64,000 nucleotides of DNA from Eledone cirrhosa (Eukaryota): contig OZ024742.1 in NCBI GenBank assembly GCA_964016885.1, forward strand, positions 343,418,001-343,482,000. Reading direction: 5' to 3'. Under the pieces are notes generated by a model, which was given only the letters and a program-made list of their open reading frames with translations, had not been told where the DNA came from and did no database searches. Position 1 is the first letter of the stretch, and each line of letters begins with the position of its first letter. Both the position numbers and the translations under genes were made by a program. Of this stretch, positions 15,595-64,000 are shown in pieces.

Positions 15595-16085
15595 TCACCT
15601 TGCTTTAAGCAAGGTGATCTTCTTCCCCTGCAAAGCCAAAATGACGCTATTGCATTTGTCGAAGATATCGGTGAGGTAGGCGCAGTTTTGCCTCACATCG
15701 AGGGTTTTCTTGTACAGTTCTGTGTTACGTCCTCGCAGAAACTCAATGATAGAATCGAAGAGTTCAAAGAAGTGAGTAAAGCACTTGCCTTTTGAAAGCC
15801 ACCTCACTTCAGTATGAAGGAGCAACTTGACGAATTCTTCGTCATTATCTTGGCACAGTTGCCGGAAAATTCGTTCATTGAGGGAATACCGCTTGATAAA
15901 ATTGATGATATCAATGGCCACCTGCAAGAACTTGCTCAGCGGCTTGCTGAGTTTCTTCGCAGCCAAGTGTTGTCGATGAATGACACAATGAACAGTAAAT
16001 ACAGATAGATTTTCTCTCTTCAGAAGAGTGACGAAACCCTTATGTTGGCCGATCATTGCTCTTGCGTCGTCTGTAGCAATGATAC
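15595..16085 (-). pseudogene. hAT Buster/Charlie-type transposase fragment (ZBED5/ZBED8/FAM200-like)
   Basis: HCVIHRQHLAAK, LLLHTEVRWLSKG and AYLTDIF..N..LQG motifs. Confidence 0.88.
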
Positions 16086-16086
16086 A

Positions 16087-16290
16087 ATGTGTGTTGTATG
16101 TCGTCCTAGATGTATATATTACCTGCCTGTGTTGTATGTAGTCCTAGATGTATGTATTACCTGTTTATATATTGCATGTGGTCCCAGCTGTATGTATTAC
16201 CTGCTTGTGTGTTGTATGTGGACCTAGATGTGTGTATTACCTCCTTATGTGTTGTATGTGGTCCTAGATGTATGTATTACCTCGTTATGA
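16087..16290. repeat. ~40-bp minisatellite, 5 copies (TGTGTTGTATGTGGTCCTAGATGTGTGTATTACC..)
   Basis: CCTAG-like cores at 16105, 16143, 16183, 16223 and 16263. Confidence 0.85.
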
Positions 16291-25601: not shown

Positions 25602-25764
25602 ACTTGAGAGCGGTGCCGAGCATCTAGACGTGTTTGGTGCTCGACTCCAGCACGGTGACGTCGTCGGCGTAAGCTGACACGGATCTCCCACGTCCCAGCT
25701 TGCGTGGGACCCCCGTCATGGTCTTCAATTTGTGCAGTAATGGCTCGAGGACCAGTACGTACAT
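25602..25764 (-). pseudogene. Tx1/L1-clade RT core fragment
   Basis: Manual translation gives MYVLVLEPLLHKL..VSAYADDVTVL (YADD at 25660-25671); GC-rich; not in the ORF track in this frame. Confidence 0.8.
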
Positions 25765-28700
25765 ACTGGAAGAGAGTAACACTACATCTATTCCCTAAAC
25801 ATATCTCTATACTGGAAGACAGTAACACTACATCTATTCCCTAAATATATCTCTATACTGGAAGACAGTAACACTACATCTATTCCCTAAATATATCTCC
25901 AAACTGGAAGACAGTAACACTACATCTATTCCCTAAATATATCTCTATACTGGAAGACAGTAACACTACATCTATTTCCTAAATATATATCTCTACTGGA
26001 AGACAGTAACACTACATCTATTCCCTAAATATTTCTCTCTACTGGAAGACAGTAACACTACATCTATTCCCTAAATATATCTCTCTACTGGAAGACAGTA
26101 ACACTACATCTATTCCCTAAATATATCTCTCTACTGGAAGACAGTAACACTACATCTATTCCCTAAATATATCTCTCTACTGGAAGACAGTAACACTACA
26201 TCTCTTCCCTAAATGTATCTCTACTGGAAGATAGTAACACTACATCTATTCCCTAAATATATCTCTACTGGAAGACAGTAACACTACATCTCTTCCCTAT
26301 ATATATTTCTACTGGAAGAGAGTAACACTACATCTATTCCCTATATATATCTCTATACTGGAAGAGAGTAACACTACATCTATTCCCTAAATATATCTCT
26401 ACTGGAAGACAGTAACACTACATCTATTCCATAAATATCTCTATACTGGAAGACAGTAACACTACATCTTTTCCCTAAATATATCTCTATACTGGAAGAC
26501 AGTAACACTACATCTATTCCATAAATATCTCTATACTGGAAGACAGTAACACTACATCTATTCCCTAAATATATCTCTATACTGGAAGACAGTAACACTA
26601 CATCTATTCCCTAAATATATCTCTATACTGGAAGACAGTAACACTACATCTATTCCCTAAATATCTCTATACTGGAAGACAGTAACACTACATCTATTCC
26701 CTAAATATATCTCCATACTGGAAGACAGTAACACTACATCTCTTCCCTAAATATATCTCTCTACTGGAAGACAGTAACACTACATCTATTCCCTAAATAT
26801 ATCTCTCTACTGGAAGACAGTAACACTACATCTATTCCCTAAATATATCTGTCTACTGGAAGACAGTAACACTACATCTATTCCCTGAATATATCTCTCT
26901 ACTGGAAGACAGTAACACTATATCTATTCCTGAAATATATCTCTACTGGAAGACAGTAACACTACATCTATTCGCTAAATATATCTCTACTGGAAGACAG
27001 TAACACTACATCTATTCCCTAAATATATCTCTAATGGAAGACAGTAACACTATATCTATTCCCTAAATATATCTCTAATGGAAGACAGTAACGCTACATC
27101 TATTCCCTAAATATCTCTCTTTATTGGAAGACAGTAACACTACATCTATTCCCTAAATATATCTCTCTACTGGAAGACAGTAACACTACATCTATTCCCT
27201 AAATATATCTCTCTACTGGAAGACGGTAAAACTACATCTATTCCCTAAATATATCTCTCTACTGGAAGACAGTAACACTACATCTATTCCCTAAATATCT
27301 CTATACTGGAAGACAGAAACACTACATCTATTCTCTAAATATATCTCACTACTGGAAGACAGTAACACTACATCTATTCCCTAAATATATCTCTACTGGA
27401 AGACAGTAACACTACATCTATTCCCTAAATATATCTCTATACTGGAAGACAGTAACACTATATCTATTCCTGAAATATATCTCTACTGGAAGACAGTAAG
27501 ACTATATCTGTTCCCTAAATATATCTCTAATGGAAGACAGTAACACTACATCTCTTCCCTAAATATATCTCTATACTGGAAGACAGTAACACTACATCTA
27601 TTCCCTAAATATATCTCTCTACTGGAAGACAGTAACACTACATCTATTCCCTAAATATATCTATACTGGAAGACAGTAACACTACATCTATTCCCTAAAT
27701 ATCTCTCTTTATTGGAAGACAGTAACACTACATCTATTCCCTAAATATATCTCTCTACTGGAAGACAGTAACACTACATCTATTCCCTAAATATATCTCT
27801 CTACTGGAAGACGGTAAAACTACATCTATTCCCTAAATATATCTCTATACTGGAAGACAGTAACACTACATCTATTCCCTAAATATATCTCTATACTGGA
27901 AGACAGTAACACAACATCTATTCCCTAAATATATCTCTATACTGGAAGACAGTAACACTACATCTATTCCCTAAATATATATCTCTACTGGAAGACAGTA
28001 ACACTACATCTATTCCCTAAATATATCTCTTTATTCGAAGACAGTAACACTACATCTATTCCCTATATATATCTCTATACTGGAAGAGAGTAACACTACA
28101 TCTATTCCCTAAATATATCTCTACTGGAAGATAGTAACACTACATCTATTCCCTAAATATATCTCTCTACTGGAAAACAGTAACACTACATCTATTCCCT
28201 AAATATATCTCTTTATTGGAAGACAGTAACACTACATCTATTCCCTATATATATCTCTATACTGGAAGAGAGTAACACTACATCTATTCCCTAAATATAT
28301 CTCTATACTGGAAGACAGTAACACAACATCTATTCCCTAAATATATCTCTATACTGGAAGACAGTAACACTACATCTATTCCCTAAATATATATCTCTAC
28401 TGGAAGACAGTAACACTACATCTATTCCCTAAATATATCTCTTTATTCGAAGACAGTAACACTACATCTATTCCCTATATATATCTCTATACTGGAAGAG
28501 AGTAACACTACATCTATTCCCTAAATATATCTCTACTGGAAGATAGTAACACTACATCTATTCCCTAAATATATCTCTCTACTGGAAAACAGTAACACTA
28601 CATCTATTCCCTAAATATATCTCTTTATTGGAAGACAGTAACACTACATCTATTCCCTATATATATCTCTATACTGGAAGAGAGTAACACTACATCTATT

Positions 28701-29965
28701 CCCTAAATATATCTCTACTGGAAGACAGTAACACTACATCTATTCCCTAAATATCTCTATACTGGAAGACAGTAACACTACATCTATTCCCTAAATATAT
28801 CTATTTATTGGAAGACAGTAACACTACATCTATTCCCTAAATATATCTCTACTGGAAGACAGTAACACTACATCTATTCCCTAAATATATCTCTCTACTG
28901 GAAGACAGTAACACTACGTCTATTTCCTAAATATATCTCTCTACTGGAAGACAGTAACACTACATCTATTCCCTAAATATCTCTATACTGGAAGACAGTA
29001 ACACTACATCTATTCCCTAAATATATCTATTTATTGGAAGACAGTAACACTACATCTATTCCCTAAATATATCTCTACTGGAAGACAGTAACACTACATC
29101 TATTCCCTAAATATATCTCTCTACTGGAAGACAGTAACACTACATCTATTCCCTAAATATGTCTGTCTACTGGAAGACAGTAACACTACATCTATTCCCT
29201 AAATATATCTCTCTACTGGAAGGCAGTAACATTACATCTATTCCCTAAATATATCACTCTACTGGAAGACAGTAACACTACATCTATTCCCTAAATATAT
29301 CTCTCTACTGGAAGAGAGTAACACTACATCTATTCCCTAAATATATCTCTCTACTGGAAGACAGTAACACTACATCTATTCCCTAAATATCTCTATACTG
29401 GAAGACAGTAACACTACATCTATTCCCTAAATATATCTGTCTACTGGAAGACACTAACACTACATCTATTCCCTAAATATCTCTATACTGGAAGACAGTA
29501 ACGCTACATCTATTCCCTAAATATATCTCTATACTGGAACACAGTAACACTACATCTTTTCCCTTAATATATCTGTCTACTGGAAGACACTAACACTATA
29601 TCTATTCCCTAAATATATCTCTTTACTGGAAGACAGTAACACTACATCTATTCCCTAAATATATCTCTCTACTGGAAGACAGTAACACTACATCTATTCC
29701 CTAAATATATGTAGCGAGAGTACTGGGTTATATGAATGTAACAAGGAATACATTGTTTGTGTGTATAATATTTAATTAACAATGGTAGATAGTATAGTTG
29801 ACATGTCAAAGAAATAGATGATAGAATGAAACAAAGTTAGTCGTTACCGTTTTGATTGCCAGGCAAACGCGGCTGGCAGAGGACGCCTGGCGAAGGCCAG
29901 CCAGGCGCCGGAAGGCCAAATGAGAGGCAGAGCCAAATGAGAGAGTGAGAACTTAAAGTTGTTAG

Positions 29966-29972
29966 TTTTATA
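29966..29972 (-). promoter_or_regulatory. LTR TATA box (TATAAAA), present in all 8 LTRs
   Basis: Minus-strand CCCTATAAAA upstream of ATTAAA/AATAAA (29771-29776), consistent with the PBS/PPT orientation. Confidence 0.55.
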
Positions 29973-30404
29973 GGGTTCTGACCGGAAGTTACAGAAAGGG
30001 TTCTACTTCCCGTCTAGATGTTAATCCAAACAAGGGAGACAACCGCTACATAACCTCCCGCCAGAATTCTAGAATATAAAAATCGAATTGAAATATGTAG
30101 CAAGTTGGCGAGAATGTTGTAACAGGCATGAAAATTACGACAAAAGAATGTTTGCAAAAATCAATGATAGATATCAAGGTAGTAAAGTAAGAGAAGGGCT
30201 CAAAGTTCAAATGTACAAAATATAGTTCACAGGTGTGCAATCACATGACAGCAGGAAAGAAAGTGTGTTCCAGAGAATGAATGCAGGTGGTCTCTGTTCT
30301 GTGGTATATCGTGAAATTTCCAACCTCCGAATGGATTTTCTCACAGAAAGAGTGCTGCAAAAATAAATTCTCTGGCTTTGGTTGTTGGTGAAGCTGTGTT
30401 GATG

Positions 30405-30630
30405 TATTGCTGTTGCTGTTGCTGCTGTATTGCCGTTGCTATTGCTGTCGCTGCTGTATTGCTGTTGCTGCTGCTGCCGCTGCTGTATTGCTGTTGCTGC
30501 TGCTGTTGCTGTTATATTGCTGTTGCTGTTGCCGCTGCTGTTGCTGCTGTATTGCTGTTGCTGCTGTATTGCTGTTGCTGCTGTATTGCTGTTGCTGCTG
30601 TATTGCTGTTGCTGTTGCTGCTGCTGTTGT
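30405..30630. repeat. Degenerate (GCT/GTT)n trinucleotide tract inside the LTR element
   Basis: Source of the poly-Q/poly-C pseudo-ORFs; a shorter version lies at 43583-43753. Confidence 0.9.
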
Positions 30631-31515
30631 CTCGCTGAGTGAGCGTATTCGGTGTTTAAATTCACAGTAAAAAAAAAATTATTTTTAGAAAAAATGAGTT
30701 GCGCAAAGTGCTAGAAATAGCAGCCGAAGTTGATGGTCGATGTTGAGAATGCGTTGACCTGGAAGGGTCAAGAGGCCAGCGACCAAAGAAATAAGCATTC
30801 TGAATAAATGCGCAGTTTTCAACGGCAAATTTACGTAGTAAATTTTTAAACCGGCAAATAGGAGAATATAGCTTAAGGCTGAAGAATCCTTGGCGAGAAA
30901 CGTTATCTCTGGCGTGCGGCTATCTCTGAGAGTCGAGATATCTCTGTGAGTCGAGAATTTGTGCTGCCTACACGTGCCAATACAAGGTTGAAAAAATAAT
31001 ATTTCTAACGCGCGAGAAAATGATAGTGCAATTTTGAAAGTGACAATGATGAAAAAGAAAGGCTTCACTCAGCATAATTATTGGTGTGAACTTTGGGAAA
31101 AAAACTTGAACGATGAAGAAAACGATGAACAAAAAGGCAATGGTTCATCGAAAATAAATGTTCCTGTTGAAATGTTTTTTAAAGAATATCAAATTTCTTT
31201 TTTTTTTTTGTTTTGAAAGAGTTCGTTGTAAGAAACGAGAAACATATATATATATCGTGAAATGTTTTTTATTTTTTTTTGTTTTGAAAGTGTTCGTTGT
31301 AAGAAACGAGAATATATATCGTGAAATGCGACAGTTAGTTGATGCGTGAGAGAAAAAGTTCGTCTGAACGCGAATTCCACATGTGCGTGTGTCCGTTTCT
31401 TTGAGTATTTTCATAGTTTGTCGATAAATTTGCTGTGTATTCGTAATGTTACCCAGACAACTCCAGAATCTGCTATCTTTTTCTTTTTTCGGGGTGACCA
31501 CTTATAGTGATGAAC

Positions 31516-31547
31516 GGCTGCGTGTTCGTATCACGCCAGGGTTACCA
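31516..31547 (+). other. tRNA-Trp 3'-half copy (positions 45-76 incl. CCA) = extended primer-binding site
   Basis: GGCTGCGTGTTCGTATCACGCCAGGGTTACCA matches the recalled metazoan tRNA-Trp GGCTGCGTGTTCGAATCACGTCGGGGTCACCA at 28/32. Confidence 0.8.
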
Positions 31548-34500
31548 ATGTAGCGAGGAGTACTGGGTTATATGAATGTAACAAGGAATACATTGTTTGT
31601 GTGTATAATATTTATTTAACAATGGTAGATAGTATAGTTAACATGTCAAAGAAATAGATGATAGAATGAAACAAAGTTAGTCGTTACCGTTTTAATTGCC
31701 AGGCAAACGCGGCTGGCAGAGGACGCCTGGCTAAGGCCAGCCAGGCACCGGAAGGCCAAGTGAGAGGCAGAACCAAATGAGAGAGTGAGAACTTAAAGTT
31801 GTTAGTTTTATAGGGTTCTGACCGGAAGTTACAGAAAGGGTTCTACTTCCCGTCTAGATGTTAATCCAAACAAGGGAGACAACCGCTACATATATCTCTC
31901 TACTGGAAGACAGTAACACTACATCTATTCCCTAAATATCTCTCTTTATTGGAAAACAGTAACACTACATCTATTCCCTAAATATATCTCTACTGGAAGA
32001 CAGTAACACTACATCAATTCCCTAAATATATCTCTACTGGAAGACAGTAACACTACATCTATTCCCTAAATATATCTCTACTGGAAGACAGTAACACTAC
32101 ATCTATTCCCTAAATATATCTATACTGGAAGACAGTAACACTACATCTATTCCCTAAATATCTCTCTTTATTGGAAGACAGTAACACTACATCTATTCCC
32201 TAAATATATCTCTATACTGGAAGACAGTAGCACTACATCTATTCCCTAAATATATCTCTCTACTGGAAGACAGTAACACTAAATCTATTCCCTAAATATA
32301 TCTCTACTGGAAGACAGTAACACTACATCTATTCCCTAAATATATCTCTCTACTGGAAGACAGTAACACTACATCTATTCCCTAAATATATCTCTCTACT
32401 GGAAGACAGTAACACTACATCTATTCCCTAAATATATCTCTACTGGAAGACAGTAACACTACATCTATTCCCTAAATATATCTCTACTGGAAGACAGTAA
32501 CACTACATCTATTCGCTAAATATATCTCTCTACTGGAAGACAGTAACACTACATCTATTCCCTAAATATATCTCTATACTGGAAGACAGTAACACTACAT
32601 CTATTCCCTAAATATATCTCTACTGGAAGACAGTAACACTACATCTATTCGCTAAATATATCTCTCTACTGGAAGACAGTAAAACTACATCTATTCCCTA
32701 AATATATCTCTCTACTGGAAGACAGTAACACTACATCTATTCCCTAAATATATCTCTCTACTGGAAGACAGCAACACTACATCTATTCCCTAAATATATC
32801 TCTTTACTGGAAGACAGTAACACTACATCTATTCCCTGAATATATCTCTCTATTGGAAGACAGTAACACTACATCTATTCCCTAAATATATCTCTACTGG
32901 AAGACAGTAACACTACATCTATTCCCTAAATATTTCTCTCTATTGGAAGACAGTAACACTACATCTATTCCCTAACTATATCTCTACTGGAAGACAGTAA
33001 CACTACATCTATTCCCTAAATATATCTCTCTACTGGAAGACAGTAACACTACATCTATTCCCTAAATATATCTCTTTATTGGAAGACAGTAACACTACAT
33101 CTATTCCCTAAATATATCTCTCTACTGGAAGACAGTAACACTACATCTATTCCCTAAATATATCTCTCTACTGGAAGACAGTAACACTACATCTATTCCC
33201 TAAATATATCTCTCTATTGGAAGACAGTAACACTACATCTATTCCCTAAATATATCTCTACTGGAAGACAGTAACACTACATCTATTCCCTAAATATTTC
33301 TCTCTATTGGGAGACAGTAACACTACATCTATTCCCTAAATATATCTCTACTGGAAGACAGTAACACTACATCTATTCCCTAAATATATCTCTCTACTGG
33401 AAGACAGTAACACTACATCTATTCCCTAAATATATCTCTCTACTGGAAGACAGTAACACTACATCTATTGCCTAAATATATCTCTCTACTGGAAGACAGT
33501 AACACTACATATATTCCCTAAATATATCTCTTTACTGGAAGACAGTAACACTACATCTATTCCCTAAATATATCTCTCTATTGGAAGACAGTAACACTAC
33601 ATCTATTCCCTAAATATATCTCTACTGGAAGACAGTAACACTACATCTATTCCCTAAATATTTCTCTCTATTGGAAGACAGTAACACTACATCTATTCCC
33701 TAAATATATCTCTACTGGAAGACAGTAACACTACATCTATTCCCTAAATATATCTCTCTACTGGAAGACAGTAACACTACATCTATTCCCTAAATATATC
33801 TCTTTATTGGAAGACAGTAACACTACATCTATTCCCTAAATATTTCTCTCTATTGGAAGACAGTAACACTACATCTATTCCCTAAATATTTCTCGTTATT
33901 GGAAGACAGTAACACTACATCTATTCCCTAAATATATCTCTACTGGAAGACAGTAACACTACATCTATTCCCTAAATATATCTCTCTACTGGAAGACAGT
34001 AACACTAGATCTATTCCCTAAATATATCTCTCTACTGGAAGACAGTAACACTACATCTATTCCCTAAATATATCTCTCTACTGGAAGACAGTAACACTAC
34101 ATCTAAACCCTAACTATATCTCTTTATTGGAAGACAGTAACCCTACATCTATTACCTAAATATATCTCTACTGGAAGACAGTAACACTACATCTATTCCC
34201 TAAATATCTCTCTATACTGGAAGACAGTAACACTACATCCAATCCCCAAATATATCTCTTTATTGGAAGACAGTAACACTACATCTATTCCCTAAATATA
34301 TCTCTTTACTGGACGACAGTAACACTACATCTATTCCCTAAATATATCTCTACTGGAAGATAGTAACACTACATCTATTCCCTAAATATATCTCTACTGG
34401 AAGACAGTAACACTACATCTATTCCCTAAACATATCTCTCTACTGGAAGACAGTAACACTACATCTATTCCCTAAATATATCTCTACTGGAAGACAGTAA

Positions 34501-35298
34501 CACTACATCTATTCCCTAAATATATCTCTACTGGAAGACAGTAACACTACATCTATTCCCTAAACATATCTCTCTACTGGAAGACAGTAACACTACATCT
34601 ATTCCCTAAATATATCTCTCTACTGGAAGACAGTAACACTACATCTATTCCCTAAATATATCTCTCTATTGGAAGACAGTAACACTACATCTATTCCCTA
34701 AATATTTCTCTCTATTGGAAGACAGTAACACTACATCTATTCCCTAAATATTTCTCTCTATTGGAAGACAGTAACACTATATCTATTCCCTAAATATATC
34801 TCTACTGGAAGACAGTAACACTACATCTATTCCCTAAATATATCTCTCTACTGGAAGACAGTAACACTACATCTAAACCCTAAATATATCTCTTTATTGG
34901 AAGACAGTAACCCTACATCTATTACCTAAATATATCTCAACTGGAAGACAGTAACACTACATCTATTCCCTAAATATCTCTCTATACTGGAAGTCAGTAA
35001 CACTACATCCAATCCCCAAATATATCTCTTTATTGGAAGACAGTAACACTACATCTATTCCCTAAATATATCTCTATACTGAAAGACAGTAACACTACAT
35101 CTATTCCCTAAATATATCTCTCTACTGGAAGACAGTAACACTACATCTATTCCCTAAATATATCTCTCTACTGGAAGACAGCAACACTACATCTATTCCC
35201 TAAATATATCTCTCTACTGGAAGACAGTAACACTACATCTATTCCCTAAATATATCTCTACTGGAAGACAGTAACACTACATCTATTCCCTAAATATA

Positions 35299-35639
35299 TG
35301 TAGCGAGAGTACTGGGTTATATGAATGTAACAAGGAATACATTGTTTGTGTGTATAATATTTAATTAACAATGGTAGATAGTATAGGTAACATGTCAAAG
35401 ACATAGATGATAGAATGAAACAAAGTTAGTCGTTACCGTTTTGATTGCTAGGCAAACGCGGCTGGCAGAGGACGCCTGGCTAAGGCCAGCCAGGCGCCGG
35501 AAGGCCAAATGTGAGGCAGAGCCAAATGAGAGAGTGAGAACTTAAAGTTGTTAGTTTTATAGGGTTCTGACTGGAAGTTACAGAAAGGGTTCTACTTCTC
35601 GTCTAGATGTCAATCCAAACAAGGGAGACAACCGCTACA
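35299..35639 (-). mobile_element. Solo LTR
   Basis: 341 bp, TG...CA, flanks TATA/TATT. Confidence 0.95.
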
Positions 35640-36728
35640 TATTTCTCTACTGGAAGACAGTAACACTACATCTATTCCCTAAATATCTCTCTCTAATGGA
35701 AGACAGTAACACTACATCTGTTCCCTAAATATATCTCTATACTGGAAGACAGTAACACTACATCTATTCCCTAAATATATCTCTCTACTGGAAGACAGTA
35801 ACACTACATCTGTTCCCTAAATATATCTCTATACTGGAAGACAGTAACACTAAATCTATTCCCTAAATATATCTCTCTACTGGAAGACAGTAACACTACA
35901 TCTATTCCCGAAATATATCTCTCTACTGGAAGACAGCAACACTACATCTATTCCCTAAATATATCTCTCTACTGGAAGACAGTAACACTACATCTATTCC
36001 CTAAATATATTTCTCTACTGGAAGACAGTAACACTACATCTATTCCCCAAATATATCTCTCTACTGGAAGACAGTAACACTACATCTATTCCCTAAATAT
36101 ATCTCTCTACTGGAAGACAGTAACACTACATCTATTCCCTAAATATATCTCTCTACTGGAAGACAGTAACACTACATCTATTCCCTAAATATATCTCTCT
36201 ACTGGAAGACAGTAACACTACATCTGTTCCCTAAATATATCTCTATACTGGAAGACAGTAACACTAAATCTATCTCTCTACTGGAAGACAGTAACACTAC
36301 ATCTATTCCCGAAATATATCTCTCTACTGGAAGACAGTAACACTACATCTATTCCCTATATATATCTCTTTATTGGAAGATAGTAACACTACAACTATTC
36401 CCTAAATATCTCTCTCTACTGGAAGACAGTAACACTACATCTATTCCCTAAATACATCTCTACTGGAAGACAGTAACACTACATCTATTCCCTAAATATA
36501 TCTCTCTACTGGAAGACAGTAACACTACATCTATTCCCTAAATGTATCTCCCTACTGGAAGAGAGTAACACTACATCTATTCCCTAAATACATATCTCTA
36601 CTGGAAGACAGTAACACTACATCTATTTCCTAAATATATCTCTCTACTGGAAGACAGTAACCCTACATCTATTCCCTAAATATATCTCTACTGGAAGACA
36701 GTAACACTACATCTATTCCCTAAATATA

Positions 36729-37069
36729 TGTAGCGAGAGTACTGGGTTATATGAATGCAACAAGGAATACATTGTTTGTGTGTATAATATTTAATTAACA
36801 ATGGTAGATAGTATAGGTAACATGTCAAAGAAATAGATGATAGAATGAAACAAAGTTAGTCGTTACCGTTTTGATTGCCAGGCAAACGCGGCTGGCAGAG
36901 GACGCCTGGCTAAGGCCAGCCAGGCACCGGAAGGCCAAATGTGAGGCAGAGCCAAATGAGAGAGTGAGAACTTAAAGTTGTTAGTTTTATAGGGTTCTGA
37001 CTGGAAGTTACAGAAAGGGTTCTACTTCTCGTCTAGATGTCAATCCAAACAAGGGAGACAACCGCTACA
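36729..37069 (-). mobile_element. Solo LTR
   Basis: 341 bp; same flanks as 35299. Confidence 0.95.
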
Positions 37070-38627
37070 TATTTCTCTACTGGAAGACAGTAACACTACA
37101 TCTATTCCCTAAATATCTCTCTCTAATGGAAGACAGTAACACTACATCTATTCCCTAAATATATCTCTCTACTGGAAGACAGTAACACTACATCTGTTCC
37201 CTAAATATATCTCTATACTGGAAGACAGTAACACTAAATCTATTCCCTAAATATATCTCTCTACTGGAAGACAGTAACACTACATCTATTCCCTAAATAT
37301 ATTTCTCTACTGGAAGACAGTAACACTACATCTATTCCCTAAATATATCTCTCTACTGGAAGACTGTAACACTACATCTATTCCCTAAATATATCTCTCT
37401 ACTGGAAGACAGTAACACTACATCTATTCCCTAAATATATCTCTCTACTGGAAGACAGTAACACTACATCTATTCCCTAAATATATCTCTCTACTGGAAG
37501 ACAGTAACACTACATCTGTTCCCTAAATATATCTCTATACTGGAAGACAGTAACACTAAATCTATTCCCTAAATATATCTCTCTACTGGAAGACAGTAAC
37601 ACTAAATCTATTCCCTAAATATATCTCTACTAGAAGACAGCAACACTACATCTATTCCCTAAATATATCTCTCTACTGGAAGACAGTAACACTACATCTA
37701 TTCCCGAAATATATCTCTCTACTGGAAGACAGTAACACTACATCTATTCCCTAAATATATCTCTTTATTGGAAGACAGTAACACGACATCTATTCCCTAA
37801 ATATCTCTCTCTACTGGAAGACAGTAACACTACATCTATTCCCTAAATATATCTCTACTGGAAGACAGTAACACTACATCTATTCCCTAAATATATCTCC
37901 CTACTGGAAGAGAGTAACACTACATCTATTCCCTAAATATATCTCTCTACTGGAAGACAGTAACACTACATCTATTCCCTAAATATATCTCTTTACTGGA
38001 AGACAGTAACACTACATCTATTCCCTAAATATATCTCTACTAGAAGACAGTAACACTACATCTATTCCCTAAATATCTCTGTTTACTGGAAGACAGTAAC
38101 ACTACATCTATTCCCTAAATATATCTCTTTATTGGAACACAGTAACACTATATCTTTTCCCTAAATATATCTGTCTACTGGAAGACACTAACACTATATC
38201 TATTCCCTAAATATATCTCTTTACTGGAAGACCGTAACACTACATCTATTCCCTAAATATATCTCTCTACTGGAAGACAGTAACACTACATCTATTCCCT
38301 AAATATATCTCTCTACTGGAAGACAGTAACACTACATCTATTCCCTAAATATATCTGTCTACTGGAAGACACTAACACTATATCTATTCCCTAAATATAT
38401 CTCTCTACTGGAAGACAGTAACACTACATCTATTCCCTAAATATACCTCTCTACAGGAAGACAGTAACACTACATCTATTCCCTAAATATATCTCTCTAC
38501 TGGAAGACAGTAACACTACATCTATTTCCTAAATATATCTCTCTACTGGAAGACAGTAACACTACATCTATTCCCTAAATATATCTCTACTGGAAGACAG
38601 TAACACTACATCTATTCCCTAAATATA

Positions 38628-38968
38628 TGTAGCGAGAGTACTGTGTTATATGAATGTAACAAGGAATACATTGTTTGTGTGTATAATATTTAATTAACAA
38701 TGGTAGATAGTATAGGTAACATGTCAAAGAAATAGATGATAGAATGAAACAAAGTTAGTCGTTACCGTTTTGATTGCCAGGCAAACGCGGCTGGCAGAGA
38801 ACGCCTGGCTAAGGCCAGCCAGGCGCCGGAAGGCCAAATGTGAGGCAGAGCCAAATGAGAGAGTGAGAACTTAAAGTTGTTAGTTTTATAGGGTTCTGAC
38901 TGGAAGTTACAGAAAGGGTTCTACTTCTCGTCTAGATGTCAATCCAAACAAGGGAGACAACCGCTACA
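38628..38968 (-). mobile_element. Solo LTR
   Basis: 341 bp; same flanks as 35299. Confidence 0.95.
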
Positions 38969-41210
38969 TATTTCTCTACTGGAAGACAGTAACACTACAT
39001 CTATTCCCTAAATATCTCTCTCTAATGGAAGACAGTAACACTACATCTATTCCCTAAATATATCTCTCTACTGGAAGACAGTAACACTACATCTGTTCCC
39101 TAAATATATCTCTATACTGGAAGACAGTAACACTAAATCTATTCCCTAAATATATCTCTCTACTGGAAGACAGTAACACTACATCTATTCCCTAAATATA
39201 TTTCTCTACTGGAAGACAGTAACACTACATCTATTCCCTAAATATATCTCTCTACTGGAAGACAGTAACACTACATCTATTCCCTAAATATATCTCTCTA
39301 CTGGAAGACAGTAACACTACATCTATTCCCTAAATATATCTCTATACTGGAAGACAGTAACACTAAATCTATTCCCTAAATATATCTCTCTACTGGAAGA
39401 CAGTAACACTACATCCATTCCCTAAATATATCTCTCTACTGGAAGACAGTAACACTACATCTATTCCCTAAATATATCTCTCTACTGGAAGACAGTAACA
39501 CTAAATCTGTTCCCTAAATATATCTCTATACTGGAAGACAGTAACACTAAATCTATTCCCCAAATATATCTCTCTACTGGAAGACAGTAACACTACATCT
39601 ATTCCCTAAATATATCTCTCTACTGGAAGACAGTAACACTACATCTGTTCCCTAAATATATCTCTATACTGGAAGACAGTAACACTAAATCTATTCCCTA
39701 AATATATCTCTCTACTGGAAGACAGTAACACTAAATCTATTCCCTAAATATATCTCTACTGGAAGACAGTAACACTATATCTATTCGCTAAATATATCTC
39801 TCTACTGGAAGACAGTAACACTACATCTATTCCCTAAATATATCTCTCTACTGGAAGACAGTAACACTACATCTATTCCCTAAATATAACTCTCTACTGG
39901 AAGACAGTAACACTACATCTATTCCCTAAATATATCTCTCTACTGGAAGACAGTAACACTACATCTGTTCCCTAAATATATCTTTATACTGGAAGACAGT
40001 AACACTAAATCTATTCCCTAAATATATCTCTACTGGAAGACAGTAACACTACATCTATTCCCTAAATATATCGCTCTACTGGAAGACAGTAACACTACAT
40101 CTATTCCCTAAATATACCTCTCTACTGGAAGACAGTAACACTACATCTCTTCCCTAAATATATCTCTACTGGAAGACAGTAACACTACATCTATTCCCTA
40201 AATATATCTCTCTACTGGAAGACAGTAACACTACATCTGTTCCCTAAATATATCTCCATACTGGAAGACAGTAACACTACATCTATTCCCTAAATATATC
40301 TCTCTACTGGAAGACAGTAACACTACATCTATTCCCTAAATATATCTCTACTGGAAGACAGTAACACTACATCTATTCCCTAAATATATCTCTCTACTGG
40401 AAGACAGTAACACTACATCTATTCCCTAAATATATCTCTACTGGAAGACAGTAACACTACATCTCTTCCCTAAATATATCTCTCTACTGGAAGACAGTAA
40501 CACTACATCTATTCCCTAAATATATCTCTCTACTGGAAGACAGTAACACTACATCTCTTCCCTAAATATATCTCTCTACTGGAAGACAGTAACACTACAT
40601 CTATTCCCTAAATATATCTCTCTACTGGAAGACAGTAACACTACATCTATTCCCTAAATATATCTCTCTACTGGAAGACAGTAACACTACATCTATTTCC
40701 TAAATATATCTCTCTACTGGAAGACAGTAACACTACATCTATTCCCTAAATATATCTCTCTACTGGAAGACAGTAACACTACATCTATTCCCTAAATATA
40801 TCTCTCTACTGGAAGACAGTAACACTACATCTGTTCCCTAAATATATCTTTATACTGGAAGACAGTAACACTAAATCTATTCCCTAAATATATCTCTACT
40901 GGAAGACAGTAACACTACATCTATTCCCTAAATATATCTCTCTACTGGAAGACAGTAACACTACATCTATTCCCTAAATATATCTGTCTACTGGAAGACA
41001 CTAACACTATATCTATTCCCTAAATATATCTCTCTACTGGAAGACAGTAACACTACATCTATTCCCTAAATATCTCTCTCTACTGGAAGACAGTAACACT
41101 ACATCTATTTCCTAAATATATCTCTCTACTGGAAGACAGTAACACTACATCTATTCCCTAAATATATCTCTACTGGAAGACAGTAACACTACATCTATTC
41201 CCTAAATATA

Positions 41211-41551
41211 TGTAGCGAGAGTACTGGGTTATATGAATGTAACAAGGAATACATTGTTTGTGTGTATAATATTTAATTAACAATGGTAGATAGTATAGGT
41301 AACATCTCAAAGAAATAGATGATAGAATGAAACAAAGTTAGTCGTTACCGTTTTGATTGCCAGGCAAACGCGGCTGGCAGAGAACGCCTGGCTAAGGCCA
41401 GCCAGGCGCCGGAAGGCCAAATGTGAGGCAGAGCCAAATGAGAGAGTGAGAACTTAAAGTTGTTAGTTTTATAGGGTTCTGACCGGAAGTTACAGAAAGG
41501 GTTCTACTTCCCGTCTAGATGTTAATCCAAACAAGGGAGACAACCGCTACA
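41211..41551 (-). mobile_element. Solo LTR (mosaic variants)
   Basis: 341 bp; TATA/TATT flanks. Confidence 0.95.
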
Positions 41552-42883
41552 TATTTCTCTCTACTGGAAGACAGTAACACTACATCTATTCCCTAAATAT
41601 ATCTCTAATGGAAGACAGTAACACTACATCTATTCCCTAAATATATCTCTCTACTGGAAGACAGTAATACTACATCTGTTCCCTAAATATATCTCTATAC
41701 TGGAAGACAGTAACACTAAATCTATTCCCTAAATATATCTCTCTACTGGAAGACAGTAACACTACATCTATTCCCTAAATATATCTCTCTACTGGAAGAC
41801 AGTAACACTACATCTATTCCCTAAATATATCTCTCTACTGGAAGACAGTAACACTACATCTGTTCCCTAAATATATCTCTCTACTGGAAGACAGTAACAC
41901 TACATCTATTCCCTAAATAGATCTCTCTACTGGAAGACAGTAACACTACATCTATTCCCTAAATAGATCTCTCTATTGGAAGACAGTAACACTACATCTA
42001 TTCCCTAAATATATCTCTCTACTGGAAGACAGTAACACTACATCTATTCCCTAAATATATCTCTCTACTGGAAGACAGTAACACTACATCTATTCCCTAA
42101 ATATATCTCTCTACTGGAAGACAGTAACACTACATCTATTCCCTAAATAGATCTCTCTACTGGAAGACAGTAACACTACATCTGTTCCCTAAATATATCT
42201 CTATACTGGAAGACAGTAACACTAAATCTATTCCCTAAATATATCTCTCTACTGGAAGACAGTAACACTAAATCTATTCCCTAAATATATCTCTCTACTG
42301 GAAGAGAGTAACCCTACGTCTATTCGCTAAATATATCTCTCTACTGGAAGACAGTAACACTACATCTATTCCCTAAATATATCTCTCTACTGGAAGACAG
42401 TAACACTACATCTATTCCCTAAATATATCTCTCTACTGGAAGACAGTAACACTACATCTGTTCCCTAAATATATCTTTATACTGGAAGACAGTAACACTA
42501 AATCTATTCCCTAAATATATCTCTACTGGAAGACAGTAACACTACATCTATTCCCTAAATATATCTCTCTACTGGAAGACAGTAACACTACATCTATTCC
42601 CTAAATATCTCTCTCTACTGGAAGACAGTAAGACTACATCTATTCCCTAAATATATCTTTTTACTGGAAGACACTAACACTATATCTATTCCCTAAATGT
42701 ATCTCTTTACTGGAAGGCAGTAACACTACATCTATTCCCTAAATATATCTCTCTACTGGAAGACAGTAACACTACATCTATTCCCTAAATATATCTCTCT
42801 ACTGGAAGACAGTAATACTACATCTATTCCCTAAATATATCTCTACTGGAAGACAGTAACACTACATCTATTCCCTAAATATA

Positions 42884-44926
42884 TGTAGCGAGAGTACTTA
42901 CAGGGTTATATGAATGTAACAAGGAATACATTGTTTGTGTGTATAATATTTAATTAACAATGGTAGATAGTATAGTTAACATGTCAAAGAAATAGATGAT
43001 AGAATGAAACAAAGTTAGTCGTTACCGTTTTGATTGCCAGGCAAACGCGGCTGGCAGAGGACGCCTGGCTAAGGCCAGCCAGGCGCCGGAAGGCCAAATG
43101 AGAGGCAGAGCCAAATGAGAGAGTGAGAACTTAAAGTTGTTAGTTTTATAGGGTTCTGACTGGAAGTTACAGAAAGGGTTCTACTTCTCGTCTAGATGTC
43201 AATCCAAACAAGGGAGACAACCGCTACATAATCTCCCGCCAGAATTTTAGAATATAAAAATCGAATTGAAATATGTAGCAAGTTGGCGAGAATGTTGTAA
43301 CAGGCATGAAAATTACCACAAAAGAATGTATGCAAAAATCAATGATAGATATCAAGGTCGTAAAGTAAGAGAAGGGCTCAAAGTTCAAATGTACAAAATA
43401 TAGTTCACAGGTATGCAGTCACATGACAGCAGGAAAGAAAGTGTGTTCCAGAGAATGAATGCAGGTGGTCTCTGTTCTGTGGTATATCGTGAAATTTCCA
43501 ACCTCCGAATGTATTTTCTCACAGGAAGAGTGCTGCAAAAATAAATTCTCTGGCTTTGGTTGTTGGTGAAGCTGTGTTGATGTATTGCTGTTGCTGTTGC
43601 TGCTGTATTGCCGTTGCTGTTGCTGTCGCTGCTGTATTGCTGTTGCTGCTGCTGCTGCCGCCGCCGCTGCTGTATTGCTGTTGCTGTTATATTGCTGTTG
43701 CTGTTGCCGCTGCTGTTGATGCTGTATTGCTGTTGCTGTTGCTGCTGCTGTTGTCTCGCTGAGTGAGCGTATTCGGTGTTTAAATTCACAGTAAAAAAAT
43801 AATTTTTTTTTAGAAAAAATGAGTTGCGCAAAGTGCTAGAAATAGCAGCCGAAGTTGATGGTCGATGTTGAGAATGCGTTGACCTGGAAGGGTCAAGAGG
43901 CCAGCGACCAAAGAAATAAGCATTCTGAATAAATGCGCAGTTTTCAACGGCAAATTTACGTAGTAAATTTTTAAACCGGCAAATAGGAGAATATAGCTTA
44001 AGGCTGAAGAATCCTTGGCGAAAAACGTTATCTCTGGCGTGCGGCTATCTCTGTGAGTCGAGAATTTGTGCTGCCTACACGTGCCAATACAAGGTTGAAA
44101 AAATAATATTTCTAACGCGCGAGAAAATGATAGTGCAATTTTGAAAGTGACAATGATGAAAAAGAAAGGCTTCACTCAGCATAATTATTGGTGTGAACTT
44201 TGGAAAAAAAACTTGAACGATGAAGAAAACGATGAACAAAAACGCAATGGTTCATCGAAAATAAATGTTCCTGTTGAAATGTTTTTTAAAGAATATCAAA
44301 TTTCTTTTTTTTTTTTTTTTTGAAAGAGTTCGTTGTAAGAAACAAGAATATATATTGTGAAATGCGACAGTTAGTTGATGCGTGAGAGAAAAAGTCCGTC
44401 TGAACGCGAATTCCACATGTGCGTGTGTCCGTTTCTTTGAGTATTTTCATAGTTTGTCGATAAATTTGCTGTGTATTCGTAATGTTACTCACACAAAACC
44501 AGAATCTGCTATCTTTTTCTTTTTTCGGGGTGACCACTTATAGTGATGAACGGCTGCGTGTTCGTATCACGTCAGAGTTACCAATGTAGCGAGGAGTACT
44601 GGGTTATATGAATGTAACAAGGAATACATTGTTTGTGTGTATAATATTTAATTAACAATGGTAGATAGTATAGTTAACATGTCAAAGAAATAGATGATAG
44701 AATGAAACAAAGTTAGTCGTTACCGTTTTGATTGCCAGGCAAACGCGGCTGGCAGAGGACGCCTGGCTAAGGCCAGCCAGGCACCGGAAGGCCAAGTGAG
44801 AGGCAGAACCAAATGAGAGAGTGAGAACTTAAAGTTGTTAGTTTTATAGGGTTCTGACCGGAAGTTACAGAAAGGGTTCTACTTCCCGTCTAGATGTTAA
44901 TCCAAACAAGGGAGACAACCGCTACA
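42884..44926 (-). mobile_element. Non-autonomous LTR retrotransposon, copy B (LTRs 42884-43228 and 44585-44926)
   Basis: Same architecture as copy A, with TSD TATA, tRNA-Trp segment at 44552-44583 and a 1356-bp internal region (1498 bp in A). Confidence 0.93.
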
Positions 44927-47900
44927 TATATCTCTCTACTGGAAGACAGTAACACTACATCTATTCCCTAAATATCTCTCTTTATTGGAAAACAGTAACA
45001 CTACATCTATTCCCTAAATATATCTCTACTGGAAGACAGTAACACTACATCAATTCCCTAAATATATCTCTACTGGAAGACAGTAACACTACATCTATTC
45101 CCTAAATATATCTCTACTGGAAGACAGTAACACTACATCTATTCCCTAAATATATCTATACTGGAAGACAGTAACACTACATCTATTCCCTAAATATCTC
45201 TCTTTATTGGAAGACAGTAACACTACATCTATTCCCTAAATATATCTATACTGGAAGACAGTAACACTACATCTATTCCCTAAATATCTCTCTTTATTGG
45301 AAGACAGTAACACTACATCTATTCCCTAAATATATCTCTCTACTGGAAGACAGTAACACTAAATCTGTTCCCTAAATATATCTCTATACTGGAAGACAGT
45401 AACACTAAATCTATTCCCTAAATATATCTCTCTACTGGAAGACAGTAACACTACATCTATTCCCTAAATATATCTCTACTGGAAGACAGTAACACTACAT
45501 CTATTCGCTAAATATATCTCTCTACTGGAAGACAGTAACACTACATCTATTCCCTAAATATATCTCTATACTGGAAGACAGTAACACTACATCTATTCCC
45601 TAAATATATCTCTACTGGAAGACAGTAACACTACATCTATTCGCTAAATATATCTCTCTACTGGAAGACAGTAACACTACATCTATTCCCTAAATATATC
45701 TCTCTACTGGAAGACAGTAACACTACATCTATTCCCTAAATATATCTCTCTACTGGAAGACAGCAACACTACATCTATTCCCTAAATATATCTCTTTACT
45801 GGAAGACAGTAACACTACATCTATTCCCTGAATATATCTCTCTATTGGAAGACAGTAACACTACATCTATTCCCTAAATATATCTCTACTGGAAGACAGT
45901 AACACTACATCTATTCCCTAAATATTTCTCTCTATTGGAAGACAGTAACACTACATCTATTCCCTAACTATATCTCTACTGGAAGACAGTAACACTACAT
46001 CTATTCCCTAAATATATCTCTCTACTGGAAGACAGTAACACTACATCTATTCCCTAAATATATCTCTTTATTGGAAGACAGTAACACTAAATCTATTCCC
46101 TAAATATATCTCTCTACTGGAAGACAGTAACACTACATCTATTCCCTAAATATATCTCTCTACTGGAAGACAGTAACACTACATCTATTCCCTAAATATA
46201 TCTCTTTACCGAAAGACAGTAACACTACATCTATTCCCTAAATATATCTCTCTATTGGAAGACAGTAACACTACATCTATTCCCTAAATATATCTCTACT
46301 GGAAGACAGTAACACTACATCTATTCCCTAAATATTTCTCTCTATTGGAAGACAGTAACACTACATCTATTCCCTAAATATATCTCTACTGGAAGACAGT
46401 AACACTACATCTATTCCCTAAATATATCTCTCTACTGGAAGACAGTAACACTACATCTATTCCCTAAATATATCTCTCTACTGGAAGACAGTAACACTAC
46501 ATCTATTGCCTAAATATATCTCTCTACTGGAAGACAGTAACACTACATATATTCCCTAAATATATCTCTTTACTGGAAGACAGTAACACTACATCTATTC
46601 CCTAAATATATCTCTCTATTGGAAGACAGTAACACTACATCTATTCCCTAAATATATCTCTACTGGAAGACAGTAACACTACATCTATTCCCTAAATATT
46701 TCTCTCTATTGGAAGACAGTAACACTACATCTATTCCCTAAATATATCTCTACTGGAAGACAGTAACACTACATCTATTCCCTAAATATATCTCTCTACT
46801 GGAAGACAGTAACACTACATCTATTCCCTAAATATATCTCTTTATTGGAAGACAGTAACACTACATCTATTCCCTAAATATTTCTCTCTATTGGAAGACA
46901 GTAACACTACATCTATTCCCGAAATATTTCTCGTTATTGGAAGACAGTAACACTACATCTATTCCCTAAATATATCTCTACTGGAAGACAGTAACACTAC
47001 ATCTATTCCCTAAATATATCTCTCTACTGGAAGACAGTAACACTAGATCTATTCCCTAAATATATCTCTCTACTGGAAGACAGTAACACTACATCTATTC
47101 CCTAAATATATCTCTCTACTGGAAGACAGTAACACTACATCTAAACCCTAACTATATCTCTTTATTGGAAGACAGTAACCCTACATCTATTACCTAAATA
47201 TATCTCTACTGGAAGACAGTAACACTACATCTATTCCCTAAATATCTCTCTATACTGGAAGACAGTAACACTACATCCAATCCCCAAATATATCTCTTTA
47301 TTGGAAGACAGTAACACTACATCTATTCCCTAAATATATCTCTATACTGGAAGACAGTAACACTACATCTATTCCCTAAATATATCTCTCTACTGGAAGA
47401 CAATAACACTACATCTATTCCCTAAATATATCTCTCTACCTGAAGACAGCAACACTACATCTATTCCCTAAATATATCTCTCTACTGGAAGACAGTCATA
47501 CTACATCTATTCCCTAAATATATCTCTCTACTGGAAGACAGTGACACTACGTCTAATCCCCAAATATATCTCTTTATTGGAAGACAGTAGCACTACATCT
47601 ATTCCCTAAATATATCTCTATACTGGAAGACAGTAACACTACATCTATTCCCTAAATATATCTCTCTACTGGACGACAGTAACACTACATCTATTCCCTA
47701 AATATATCTCTACTGGAAGATAGTAACACTACATCTATTCCCTAAATATATCTCTACTGGAAGACAGTAACACTACATCTATTCCCTAAACATATCTCTA
47801 TACTGGAAGACAGTAACACTACATCTATTCCCTAAATATATCTCTCTACTGGAAGACAATAACACTACATCTATTCCCTAAATATATCTCTCTACCTGAA

Positions 47901-50900
47901 GACAGCAACACTACATCTATTCCCTAAATATATCTCTCTACTGGAAGACAGTCATACTACATCTATTCCCTAAATATATCTCTCTACTGGAAGACAGTAA
48001 CACTACATCTATTCCCTAAACATATCTCTCTACTGGAAGACAGTAACACTACATCTATTCCCTAAATATATCTCTACTGGAAGACAGTAACACTACATCT
48101 ATTCCCTAAATATATCTCTACTGGAAGACAGTAACACTACATCTATTCCCTAAACATATCTCTCTACTGGAAGACAGTAACACTACATCTATTCCCTAAA
48201 TATATCTCTCTACTGGAAGACAGTAACACTACATCTATTCCCTAAATATATCTCTCTATTGGAAGACAGTAACACTACATCTATTCCCTAAATATTTCTC
48301 TCTATTGGAAGACAGTAACACTACATCTATTCCCTAAATACTTCTCTCTATTGGAAGACAGTAACACTATATCTATTCCCTAAATATATCTCTACTGGAA
48401 GACAGTAACACTACATCTATTCCCTAAATATATCTCTCTACTGGAAGACAGTAACACTACATCTAAACCCTAAATATATCTCTTTATTGGAAGACAGTAA
48501 CCCTACATCTATTACCTAAATATATCTCTACTGGAAGACAGTAACACTACATCTATTCCCTAAATATCTCTCTATACTGGAAGTCAGTAACACTACATCC
48601 AATCCCCAAATATATCTCTTTATTGGAAGACAGTAACACTACATCTATTCCCTAAATATATCTCTATACTGAAAGACAGTAACACTACATCTATTCCCTA
48701 AATATATCTCTCTACTGGAAGACAGTAACACTACATCTATTCCCTAAATATATCTCTCTACTGGAAGACAGCAACACTACATCTATTCCCTAAATATATC
48801 TCTCTACTGGAAGACAGTAACACTACATCTATTCCCTAAATATCTCTCTCTACTGGAAGACAGTAACACTACATCTATTCCCTAAATATATCTCTCTATT
48901 GGAAGACAGTAACACTACATCTATTCCCTAAATATATCTCTACTGGAAGACAGTAACACTACATCTATTCCCTAAATATTTCTCTCTATTGGAAGACAGT
49001 AACACTACATCTATTCCCTAAATATATCTCTACTGGAAGACAGTAACACTACTTCTATTCCCTAAATATATCTCTCTACTGGAAGACAGTAACACTACAT
49101 CTATTCCCTAAATATATCTCTCTACTGGAAGACAGTAACACTACATCTATTCCCTAAATATATCTCTCTACTGGAAGACAGTAACACTACATCTATTCCC
49201 TAAATATATCTCTTTACTGGAAGACAGTAACACTACATCTATTCCCTAAATATATCTCTCTATTGGAAGACAGTAACACTACATCTATTCCCTAAATATA
49301 TCTCTACTGGAAGACAGTAACACTACATCTATTCCCTAAATATTTCTCTCTATTGGAAGACAGTAACACTACATCTATTCCCTAAATATATCTCTACTGG
49401 AAGACAGTAACACTACATCTATTCCCTAAATATATCTCTCTACTGGAAGACAGTAACACTACATCTATTCCCTAAATATATCTCTTTATTGGAAGACAGT
49501 AACACTACATCTATTCCCTAAATATTTCTCTCTATTGGAAGACAGTAACACTACATCTATTCCCTAAATATATCTCTACTGGAAGACAGTAACACTACAT
49601 CTATTCCCTAAATATATCTCTCTACTGGAAGATAGTAACACTACATCTATTCCCTAAATATATCTCTTTACTGGAAGACAGTAACACTACATCTATTCCC
49701 TAAATATTTCTCTCTATTGGAAGACAGTAACACTACATCTATTCCCTAAATATCTCTCTTTATTGGAAAACAGTAACACTACATCTATTCCCTAAATATA
49801 TCTCTACTGGAAGACAGTAACACTACATCAATTCCCTAAATATATCTCTACTGGAAGACAGTAACACTACATCTATTCCCTAAATATATCTCTTTATTGG
49901 AAAACAGTAACACTACATCTATTCCCTAAATATATCTCTACTGGAAGACAGTAACACTACATCAATTCCCTAAATATATCTCTACTGGAAGACAGTAACA
50001 CTACATCTATTCCCTAAATATATCTCTACTGGAAGACAGTAACACTACATCTATTCCCTAAATATATCTATACTGGAAGACAGTAACACTACATCTATTC
50101 CCTAAATATCTCTCTTTATTGGAAAACAGTAACACTACATCTATTCCCTAAATATATCTCTACTGGAAGACAGTAACACTACATCAATTCCCTAAATATA
50201 TCTCTACTGGAAGACAGTAACACTACATCTATTCCCTAAATATATCTCTACTGGAAGACAGTAACACTACATCTATTCCCTAAATATATCTATACTGGAA
50301 GACAGTAACACTACATCTATTCCCTAAATATCTCTCTTTATTGGAAGACAGTAACACTACATCTATTCCCTAAATATATCTCTCTACTGGAAGACAGTAA
50401 CACTAAATCTGTTCCCTAAATATATCTCTATACTGGAAGACAGTAACACTAAATCTATTCCCTAAATATATCTCTCTACTGGAAGACAGTAACACTACAT
50501 CTATTCCCTAAATATATCTCTACTGGAAGACAGTAACACTACATCTATTCGCTAAATATATCTCTCTACTGGAAGACAGTAACACTACATCTATTCCCTA
50601 AATATATCTCTATACTGGAAGACAGTAACACTACATCTATTCCCTAAATATATCTCTACTGGAAGACAGTAACACTACATCTATTCGCTAAATATATCTC
50701 TCTACTGGAAGACAGTAACACTACATCTATTCCCTAAATATATCTCTCTACTGGAAGACAGTAACACTACATCTATTCCCTAAATATATCTCTCTACTGG
50801 AAGACAGCAACACTACATCTATTCCCTAAATATATCTCTTTACTGGAAGACAGTAACACTACATCTATTCCCTGAATATATCTCTCTATTGGAAGACAGT

Positions 50901-62900: not shown

Positions 62901-64000
62901 ATATCTCTCTACTGGAAGACAGTAACACTACATCTATTCCCTAAATATATCTCTTTACTGGAAGACAGTAACACTACATCTATTCCCTGAATATATCTCT
63001 CTATTGGAAGACAGTAACACTACATCTATTCCCTAAATATATCTCTACTGGAAGACAGTAACACTACATCTATTCCCTAAATATTTCTCTCTATTGGAAG
63101 ACAGTAACACTACATCTATTCCCTAAATATATCTCTACTGGAAGACAGTAACACTACATCTATTCCCTAAATATATCTCTCTACTGGAAGACAGTAACAC
63201 TACATCTATTCCCTAAATATATCTCTTTATTGGAAGACAGTAACACTACATCTATTCCCTAAATATATCTCTCTACTGGAAGACAGTAACACTACATCTA
63301 TTCCCTAAATATATCTCTTTACTGGAAGACAGTAACACTACATCTATTCCCTAAATACATCTCTCTATTGGAAGACAGTAACACTACATCTATTCCCTAA
63401 ATATATCTCTACTGGAAGACAGTAAGACTACATCTATTCCCTAAATATTTCTCTCTATTGGAAGACAGTAACACTACATCTATTCCCGAAATATATCTCC
63501 ACTGGAAGACAGTAACACTACATCTATTCCCTAAATATATCTCTCTACTGGAAGACAGTAACACTACATCTATTCCCTAAATATATCTCTCTACTAGAAG
63601 ACAGTAACACTACATCTATTCCCTAAATATATCTCTTTATTGGAAGACAGTAACCCTACATCTATTACCTAAATATATCTCTACTGGAAGACAGTTACAC
63701 TACATCTATTCCCGAAATATTTCTCTCTATTGGAAGACAGTAACACTACATCTATTCCCTAAATATATCTCTACTGGAAGACAGTAACACTACATCTATT
63801 CCCTAAATATATCCCTCTACTGGAAGACAGTAACACTACATCTATTCCCTAAATATATCTCTTTACTGGAAGACAGTAACACTACATCTATTCCCTAAAT
63901 ATATCTCCCTATTGGAAGACAGTAACACTACATCTATTCCCTAAATATATCTCTACTGGAAGACAGTAACACTACATCTAAACCTTAAATATATCTCTTT

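Follow-up and report, generated by a model that had tools for sequence, protein, structure and literature searches.

Six copies of a dispersed, non-autonomous CsRn1-type retroelement in a single-locus satellite array very probably descend from one insertion

Results

The stretch of DNA analyzed here, referred to as the window, comprises 64,000 nucleotides (nt) at positions 343,418,001-343,482,000 of C3 in a 3.0-Gb animal genome. On its plus strand lies a tandem array of a 46-bp (44/46) monomer (25763..64000, extending to ~71,650 in window-extended coordinates), in which copies of a long terminal repeat (LTR) retroelement are embedded. Exactly eight LTR copies are present in the window, making up two full elements (E1 and E2) and four solo LTRs, all with TG..CA ends and all on one strand, the sense strand of the element being the minus strand of the window. 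Each of the six insertions stands after CCCTAAATATA of the 46-bp monomer and thus at one shared phase. The positions, strand, and flanks of the LTRs bear out the first-pass annotation, which had described two noncoding elements and four 341-bp solo LTRs in a single orientation and at a single TATA phase.

E1 (minus strand, 29710..31890) is a full non-autonomous LTR element of 2,181 bp, with TATA duplicated at 29706-29709 and 31891-31894. Its 3' LTR (341 bp, 29710..30050) has a TATA box at 29966-29974 and adjoins a polypurine tract (PPT; 30051..30064) resembling the tract before the 3' LTR of L109, a gag-pol element of the host described below. The interior includes a low-complexity (TTGCTG)n tract (30407..30637), which belongs to no protein family and is far shorter in other subfamilies of the element. 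The 5' LTR (342 bp, 31549..31890; TATA box at 31806-31814) is followed by a primer-binding site (PBS) of 32 nt matching tRNA-Trp (31516..31547), composed of an 18-nt core (31530-31547) and an extension over tRNA positions 58-45, with T replacing A at tRNA position 58 (31529). Beyond this PBS lies the remnant of a second LTR-end (U5)/PBS junction (31489..31510), in which a 12-nt PBS copy occupies 31489-31500 and an LTR-end copy occupies 31503-31510. E2 (minus strand, 42884..44926) is a full element of 2,043 bp with its 3' LTR at 42884-43228, PPT at 43229-43242, 32-nt PBS at 44552-44583, and 5' LTR at 44585-44926; the interiors of the two full elements measure 1.36-1.50 kb. The TG..CA ends, PBS, PPT, and TATA box, previously reported as intact, could all be placed at exact coordinates. 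Between the full elements, likewise on the minus strand, are the 341-bp solo LTRs 1 (35299..35639), 2 (36729..37069), 3 (38628..38968), and 4 (41211..41551). The right-hand 4 bp are TATA for both full elements and TATT for all four solo LTRs, and the 4-bp duplication is perfect in only two of the six insertions.

The earlier claim that gag and pol are missing was upheld. None of the 8 longest open reading frames (ORFs), tested out of 54 ORFs of at least 40 amino acids, reached the Pfam cut-off, and a tblastn comparison of pol pieces of the host gag-pol element with the array element returned a single match with an E value of 0.43, and a coding remnant in the interior was rejected on these results. 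ARAGORN and Rfam searches detected no tRNA gene and no RNA family in the element. A stable hairpin at the PBS was also rejected, the PBS region folding no better than shuffled sequences (z -0.16).

An LTR search of the genome yielded 1,994 candidate places on many contigs, of which 40 were scored. The exact 24-nt LTR end occurs 273 times genome-wide, 8 times in the array and 265 times outside it, copies elsewhere standing in unrelated DNA. The 46-bp satellite was absent at 23 of 23 scored loci outside the window and at 44 of 44 further loci (L063-L106), and the satellite-LTR junction was found six times in the genome, each time in the window. Matched target-site duplications (TSDs) were read for 23 insertions outside the window, drawn from three locus sets (12 + 10 + 1) with one-flank copies and copies of unclear boundary excluded; all are 4 bp long, they vary in sequence, and none is TATA. 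The element family is dispersed genome-wide with unselective 4-bp duplications, and its description as a satellite-resident family must be abandoned. It is true, as had been noted, that no copy lies outside the satellite in the window, but this is uninformative, considering that from 273 exact LTR ends per 3.0 Gb only ~0.002 copies are expected in the 25.8 kb of non-satellite window DNA. Contigs from two other organisms contain, at low depth, pieces 90-99% similar to the element, and the family may be common to related species.

The satellite itself is confined to one place. An exact satellite 30-mer was found 404 times in forward and 255 times in reverse orientation genome-wide, all of these being recovered within the window and the next 200 kb, and we conclude that the 46-bp satellite is a single-locus array. 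A second, inverted block lies at ~96,400-143,700 in window-extended coordinates, so that two blocks of ~46 kb and ~47 kb stand in opposite orientation, 25 kb apart, and total ~93 kb. A search of both satellite blocks revealed no further element copy in the remainder of the forward block or in the 47-kb inverted block. Since the satellite is single-locus and amounts to ~93 kb in two blocks, a general centromeric role of the array is unlikely. At 45,000-64,000 the array has higher-order blocks, and a rare monomer string found after both full elements recurs further right with no LTR preceding it.

The array copies are set apart from the dispersed copies by a private LTR base. The A form of this base occurs eight times in the genome, always in the array, while the G form occurs 138 times and in none of the eight array LTRs; among 29 aligned dispersed LTRs, none has the A. 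In a phylogenetic tree, the eight array LTRs constitute one side of a branch (support, 93/79). All eight end in CA on the sense strand, compared to 7 of 50 outside LTRs, whose remaining ends are TA (34), AA (7), and GA (2). We also compared the 276 nt beside each insertion, ranking matches among 871 same-phase sites. To the right of E1 and of E2, all 276 nt agree (rank 1 of 871); solo LTRs 2 and 3 agree likewise, with solo LTR 4 next closest, and the left flank of E2 is closest to that of solo LTR 4. The private base (8 of 8 versus 0 of 138) and these linked monomer variants favor the proposal, preferred already in the first-pass annotation, that the element inserted once and was carried along by expansion of the array.

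Pairs of LTRs in the array differ by 2-12 substitutions in shared patterns. The left LTR of E2 shows 4 differences to three of the solo LTRs versus 6 to its own partner, and the right LTR of E2 is 2 differences from that of E1. E2 thus combines a left LTR and left flank of the solo type with a right LTR and right flank of the E1 type, and for this reason it is likely a recombinant. Within-element LTR pairs differ by 7 (E1) and 6 (E2) substitutions per 341 bp, and ten dispersed pairs by 0-7; these values were not used as ages because the array LTRs have recombined.

In the unrelated 38-bp array at C1:204,412,001-204,443,900 (L110-L113), one full copy of an older subfamily and three deleted LTR copies share the same flanks, making this array a second case of passive amplification.

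CsRn1-like elements are defined by a tRNA-Trp PBS, an unselective 4-bp TSD, TGT..ACA/ATA/AAA ends, a CX2HX9CX3C (CHCC) Gag motif, and a GPY/F motif without a chromodomain (PMC2582038). The element possesses the Trp PBS, matched by the tRNA-Trp(CCA) genes of the host, as well as the unselective 4-bp TSD and the LTR ends, in agreement with its earlier assignment as a non-autonomous, tRNA-Trp-primed Ty3/Gypsy element of the CsRn1 type. [quoted passage not shown]

This helper candidate is the family of L109, a decayed host gag-pol copy with matches to PR, RT, RNase H, and integrase and with a GPY motif. Of 1,882 candidate places for the L109 family, 150 were scored, and the CHCC Gag motif was present in 23 of 30 loci. 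In common with the element, the family has the 32-nt PBS, the terminal 7 bp, and a PPT of similar sequence. The interior of its LTR, however, is unrelated to the element LTR, and three pattern searches of the genome for a closer helper found none. The first PBS-junction search for a helper with the same LTR gave 14 matches, none of them gag-pol; the second gave 2, a gag-pol element with an unrelated LTR and a copy of an older subfamily; and the 2 matches of the PPT-junction search both belong to the element's own family. The L109 family is put forward as a candidate only, its placement in the clade being based on motifs.

The match of the PBS to tRNA-Trp runs unbroken for 32 nt, from tRNA position 76 to 45, rather than for 18 nt. 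The long-PBS motif occurs 479 times. In the first 100 listed, counted by eye, T stands at position 58 in 97, C in 3, and A in none; as for the core, 11 have the full tRNA sequence at positions 67 and 72, and 78 have the family form. In the L109 family, all 17 PBS copies seen among the 30 loci end at position 45 as well. The extension is not a trait of the whole clade: the genome has 410 exact 18-nt Trp sites, and among the first 30 of these the match goes beyond the core at 9 (at 10 if a one-base insertion is tolerated) and ends with it at 20; in viral contigs, all nine exact Trp PBSs end after 18 nt. Metagenomes were scanned for the 32-nt form, which by requiring 32 nt provides no denominator, with 11 matches; 2 of these contigs represent one CHCC gag-pol family ending at position 45, and the other 9 have no CHCC Gag behind the match.

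While the family PBS usually departs from the host tRNA-Trp 18-mer at two places, seven rearranged loci (L066, L067, L068, L071, L073, L074, and L075) carry the exact host 18-mer adjoining the LTR, which points to priming by host tRNA-Trp and a stop at position 58. At these loci, the LTR and 18-mer abut either an internal or an inverted site, frequently across a short CATC microhomology. They look like integrated mis-transferred plus-strand strong-stop products.

Discussion

Six insertions at the same phase and on the same strand would, by our own arithmetic, have a probability of ~1e-10 if they were random and independent, and the array copies are not independent insertions. We consider it very probable that all six go back to a single chance insertion: a dispersed non-autonomous element of the CsRn1 type landed once in the array, and array duplication together with LTR recombination multiplied it. 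In the envisaged sequence of events, host tRNA-Trp would have served as primer on the element RNA, and a CHCC-Gag helper of the CsRn1 clade would have supplied copying and integration in trans; a single cDNA, both of whose LTRs carried the private base, would thereby have entered a monomer at its TATA. In a duplicate of this copy, the two LTRs may then have recombined to leave a solo LTR, which unequal exchange copied to four, and E2 may have arisen when a solo-type LTR underwent another exchange with E1. The shared phase and strand are explained because duplication preserves both.

Several points weigh against a single origin or qualify it. The right flanks of full elements and solo LTRs are unrelated (ranks 263-551 of 871), the left flank of E1 matches that of no other copy (ranks 125-704), and solo LTR 1 is linked only by ~80 nt and TATT. 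The flanks alone hence do not join all six copies in one step; the LTR base does, and the case for a single origin is based mainly on this one nucleotide. The branch uniting the array LTRs is not starred, and the bootstrap did not reach a stable value. Furthermore, no contig piece listed spans the stretch, and the junctions are seen in the assembly and not in reads. The change in flanks we would tentatively attribute to monomer turnover beside the LTR.

The differing right flanks, together with the 6-12 substitutions between the solo LTRs and the LTRs of E1, could also be reconciled with two insertions, in which a resident copy was transcribed and its cDNA came back into the array, either by integrating or by recombining homologously with an LTR already there, the solo LTRs then having a separate origin. 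This seems very improbable, since a second integration would need the same phase and strand, since genome-wide the private base is confined to the array copies and this lineage thus gives no indication of having transposed, and since monomer turnover next to the LTR is the simpler account of the flanks. That some copies are duplications made in assembling a difficult array, as flanks identical over 276 nt and the lack of a read-level span might suggest, is still less credible, given that every LTR pair differs in shared patterns and that internal indels separate E1 and E2, which duplicated reads would not give. No more tenable is targeting of the 46-bp satellite or its TATA phase by the integrase, in the manner of centromeric retrotransposons and their arrays: the single phase and strand would fit it, but it is refuted by the 265 LTR ends outside the array, the varied outside duplications without a single TATA, the empty 47-kb inverted block, the private base in all eight array LTRs, and the reported lack of target preference and chromodomain in CsRn1 elements (PMC2582038). 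Targeting would place most insertions in the satellite, independently of one another, yet only 8 of 273 ends lie there and these are of one descent; copies elsewhere in random TA-rich DNA had been named beforehand as the finding that would decide against it, and the copies elsewhere do sit in unrelated DNA with varied target duplications.

The element adds one more to the non-autonomous Gypsy derivatives in animals, and the mechanism of its amplification is ordinary. It provides a worked example in which copies of one phase and strand in a tandem array arose by duplication and do not indicate targeting, and in which LTR copies serve as markers of array growth. In rye, solo LTRs are enriched at the pSc200/pSc250 arrays and amplified by recombination with the repeats (PMC4857426); here, by contrast, there is a single small array, and descent can be traced base by base. 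A partial literature search found no direct match for duplicated insertions in arrays.

Among known systems, CsRn1/Kabuki elements (PwRn1, AgCR1-14) resemble the element in their tRNA-Trp PBS, unselective 4-bp TSD, and TGT..ACA/ATA/AAA ends (PMC2582038), and the host family with CHCC Gag, PR-RT-RH-IN, and GPY has the element's cis-elements. The element differs in being noncoding, in its 32-nt PBS compared to a 12-nt consensus (PMC2582038), in its duplicated U5/PBS junction, and in that some copies end in GA. Of 12 cephalopod species, 9 are reported to harbor the CsRn1 clade (PMC6238403). With miniature terminal-repeat retrotransposons (TRIMs) such as biv-TRIM and Helenus, the element has in common non-autonomy, two LTRs with PBS and PPT and no coding capacity, many solo LTRs, and a presumed Gypsy helper (PMC6934838; PMC10886601), and with Helenus of animals also the 4-bp TSD. 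However, TRIMs are described as <1,000 bp long with 100-250-bp repeats (PMC10886601; PMC6934838), whereas the element is ~2.0-2.2 kb (2,181 and 2,043 bp) with 341-bp LTRs, and its size rules out TRIM identity. Identity with Helenus was rejected too, because the tRNA-like stretch is located in the PBS, external to the LTR, and comprises positions 45-76 only, while that of Helenus is a promoter (A and B boxes) inside the LTR. Of the previous label, a passenger of the TRIM or large retrotransposon derivative (LARD) type, the noncoding passenger stands and the TRIM does not. LARDs are several kb in size. The element shares with them a noncoding interior between LTRs and the need for a helper in trans (PMC7215508). 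As presented in that source, LARDs are plant elements with conserved internal RNA structure; in our element, folding was confined to the PBS region, with the result given above.

The long PBS is, with some reserve, best viewed as the inherited fossil of one RT read-through past 1-methyladenosine at tRNA position 58 (m1A58), including the misread base. m1A58 is a plus-strand stop that can be read through (PMC8599865), and the PBS of Ty1/Ty3 is not inherited from the tRNA (PMC5371799), which fits the fixed PBS mismatches in the element. Against the fossil stands the A at position 58 in all 17 PBS copies of the L109 family: the misread base is thus specific to the element's family and could be an ordinary mutation, the chance of a single mismatch falling at position 58 being about 1 in 32.

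A functional long pairing is an unlikely alternative. T-arm pairing outside the core PBS is documented for Ty1/Ty3 (PMC5371799) and HIV-1 (PMC8599865), as is a second PBS for Drosophila gypsy (PMC1635307); the complement reaches to about position 55 in HIV-1 and is split into separate sites in Ty1/Ty3, whereas that of the element is unbroken from 76 to 45. The end point at position 45 is common to the element, to the host gag-pol family with unrelated LTRs, and to one CHCC-Gag family of another animal, represented by the 2 metagenome contigs. In the element, the freely changed position is 58, at which m1A is unable to pair. Read-through, at first an accident, might conceivably have been put to use by some CsRn1-clade families as a functional 32-nt priming site, which would open the whole 3' half of tRNA-Trp, from the acceptor stem through the T arm and the variable loop as far as the anticodon stem. 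In that case, the places at which retrotransposon RT halts on modified tRNA would be recorded in PBS extensions, and an element without genes might thereby be able to compete for primer. Some other origin of the 32-nt PBS is likewise unlikely. A functional site would represent an unusual priming arrangement and a fossil would be genomic evidence of m1A58 read-through. We found no report of an extended PBS in gypsy elements or the CsRn1 clade in the part of the literature covered; the PBS alignment in the supplement of PMC2582038 may bear on this novelty.

Other CCA-bearing 3' pieces of tRNA-Trp, of varied length, adjoin LTR-like ends at L051-L054, L056-L058, L172, L184, L145, and L153, and some of them stop at tRNA positions 38-39 or 27. 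These stops fall just before bases commonly modified in tRNAs. Tandem tRNA-Trp gene clusters, in which the 3' half of the genes comes in three or more sequence variants, are located at C4:277.41-277.44 Mb and 353.39-353.49 Mb. Elsewhere in the window, fragments at 1017-2546, 7325-8173, 11024-11536, 15073-15543, 15595-16143, and 22289-23735 were recognized by eye, presumably representing non-LTR RT, Penelope-type RT/GIY-YIG, and DNA transposase sequences.

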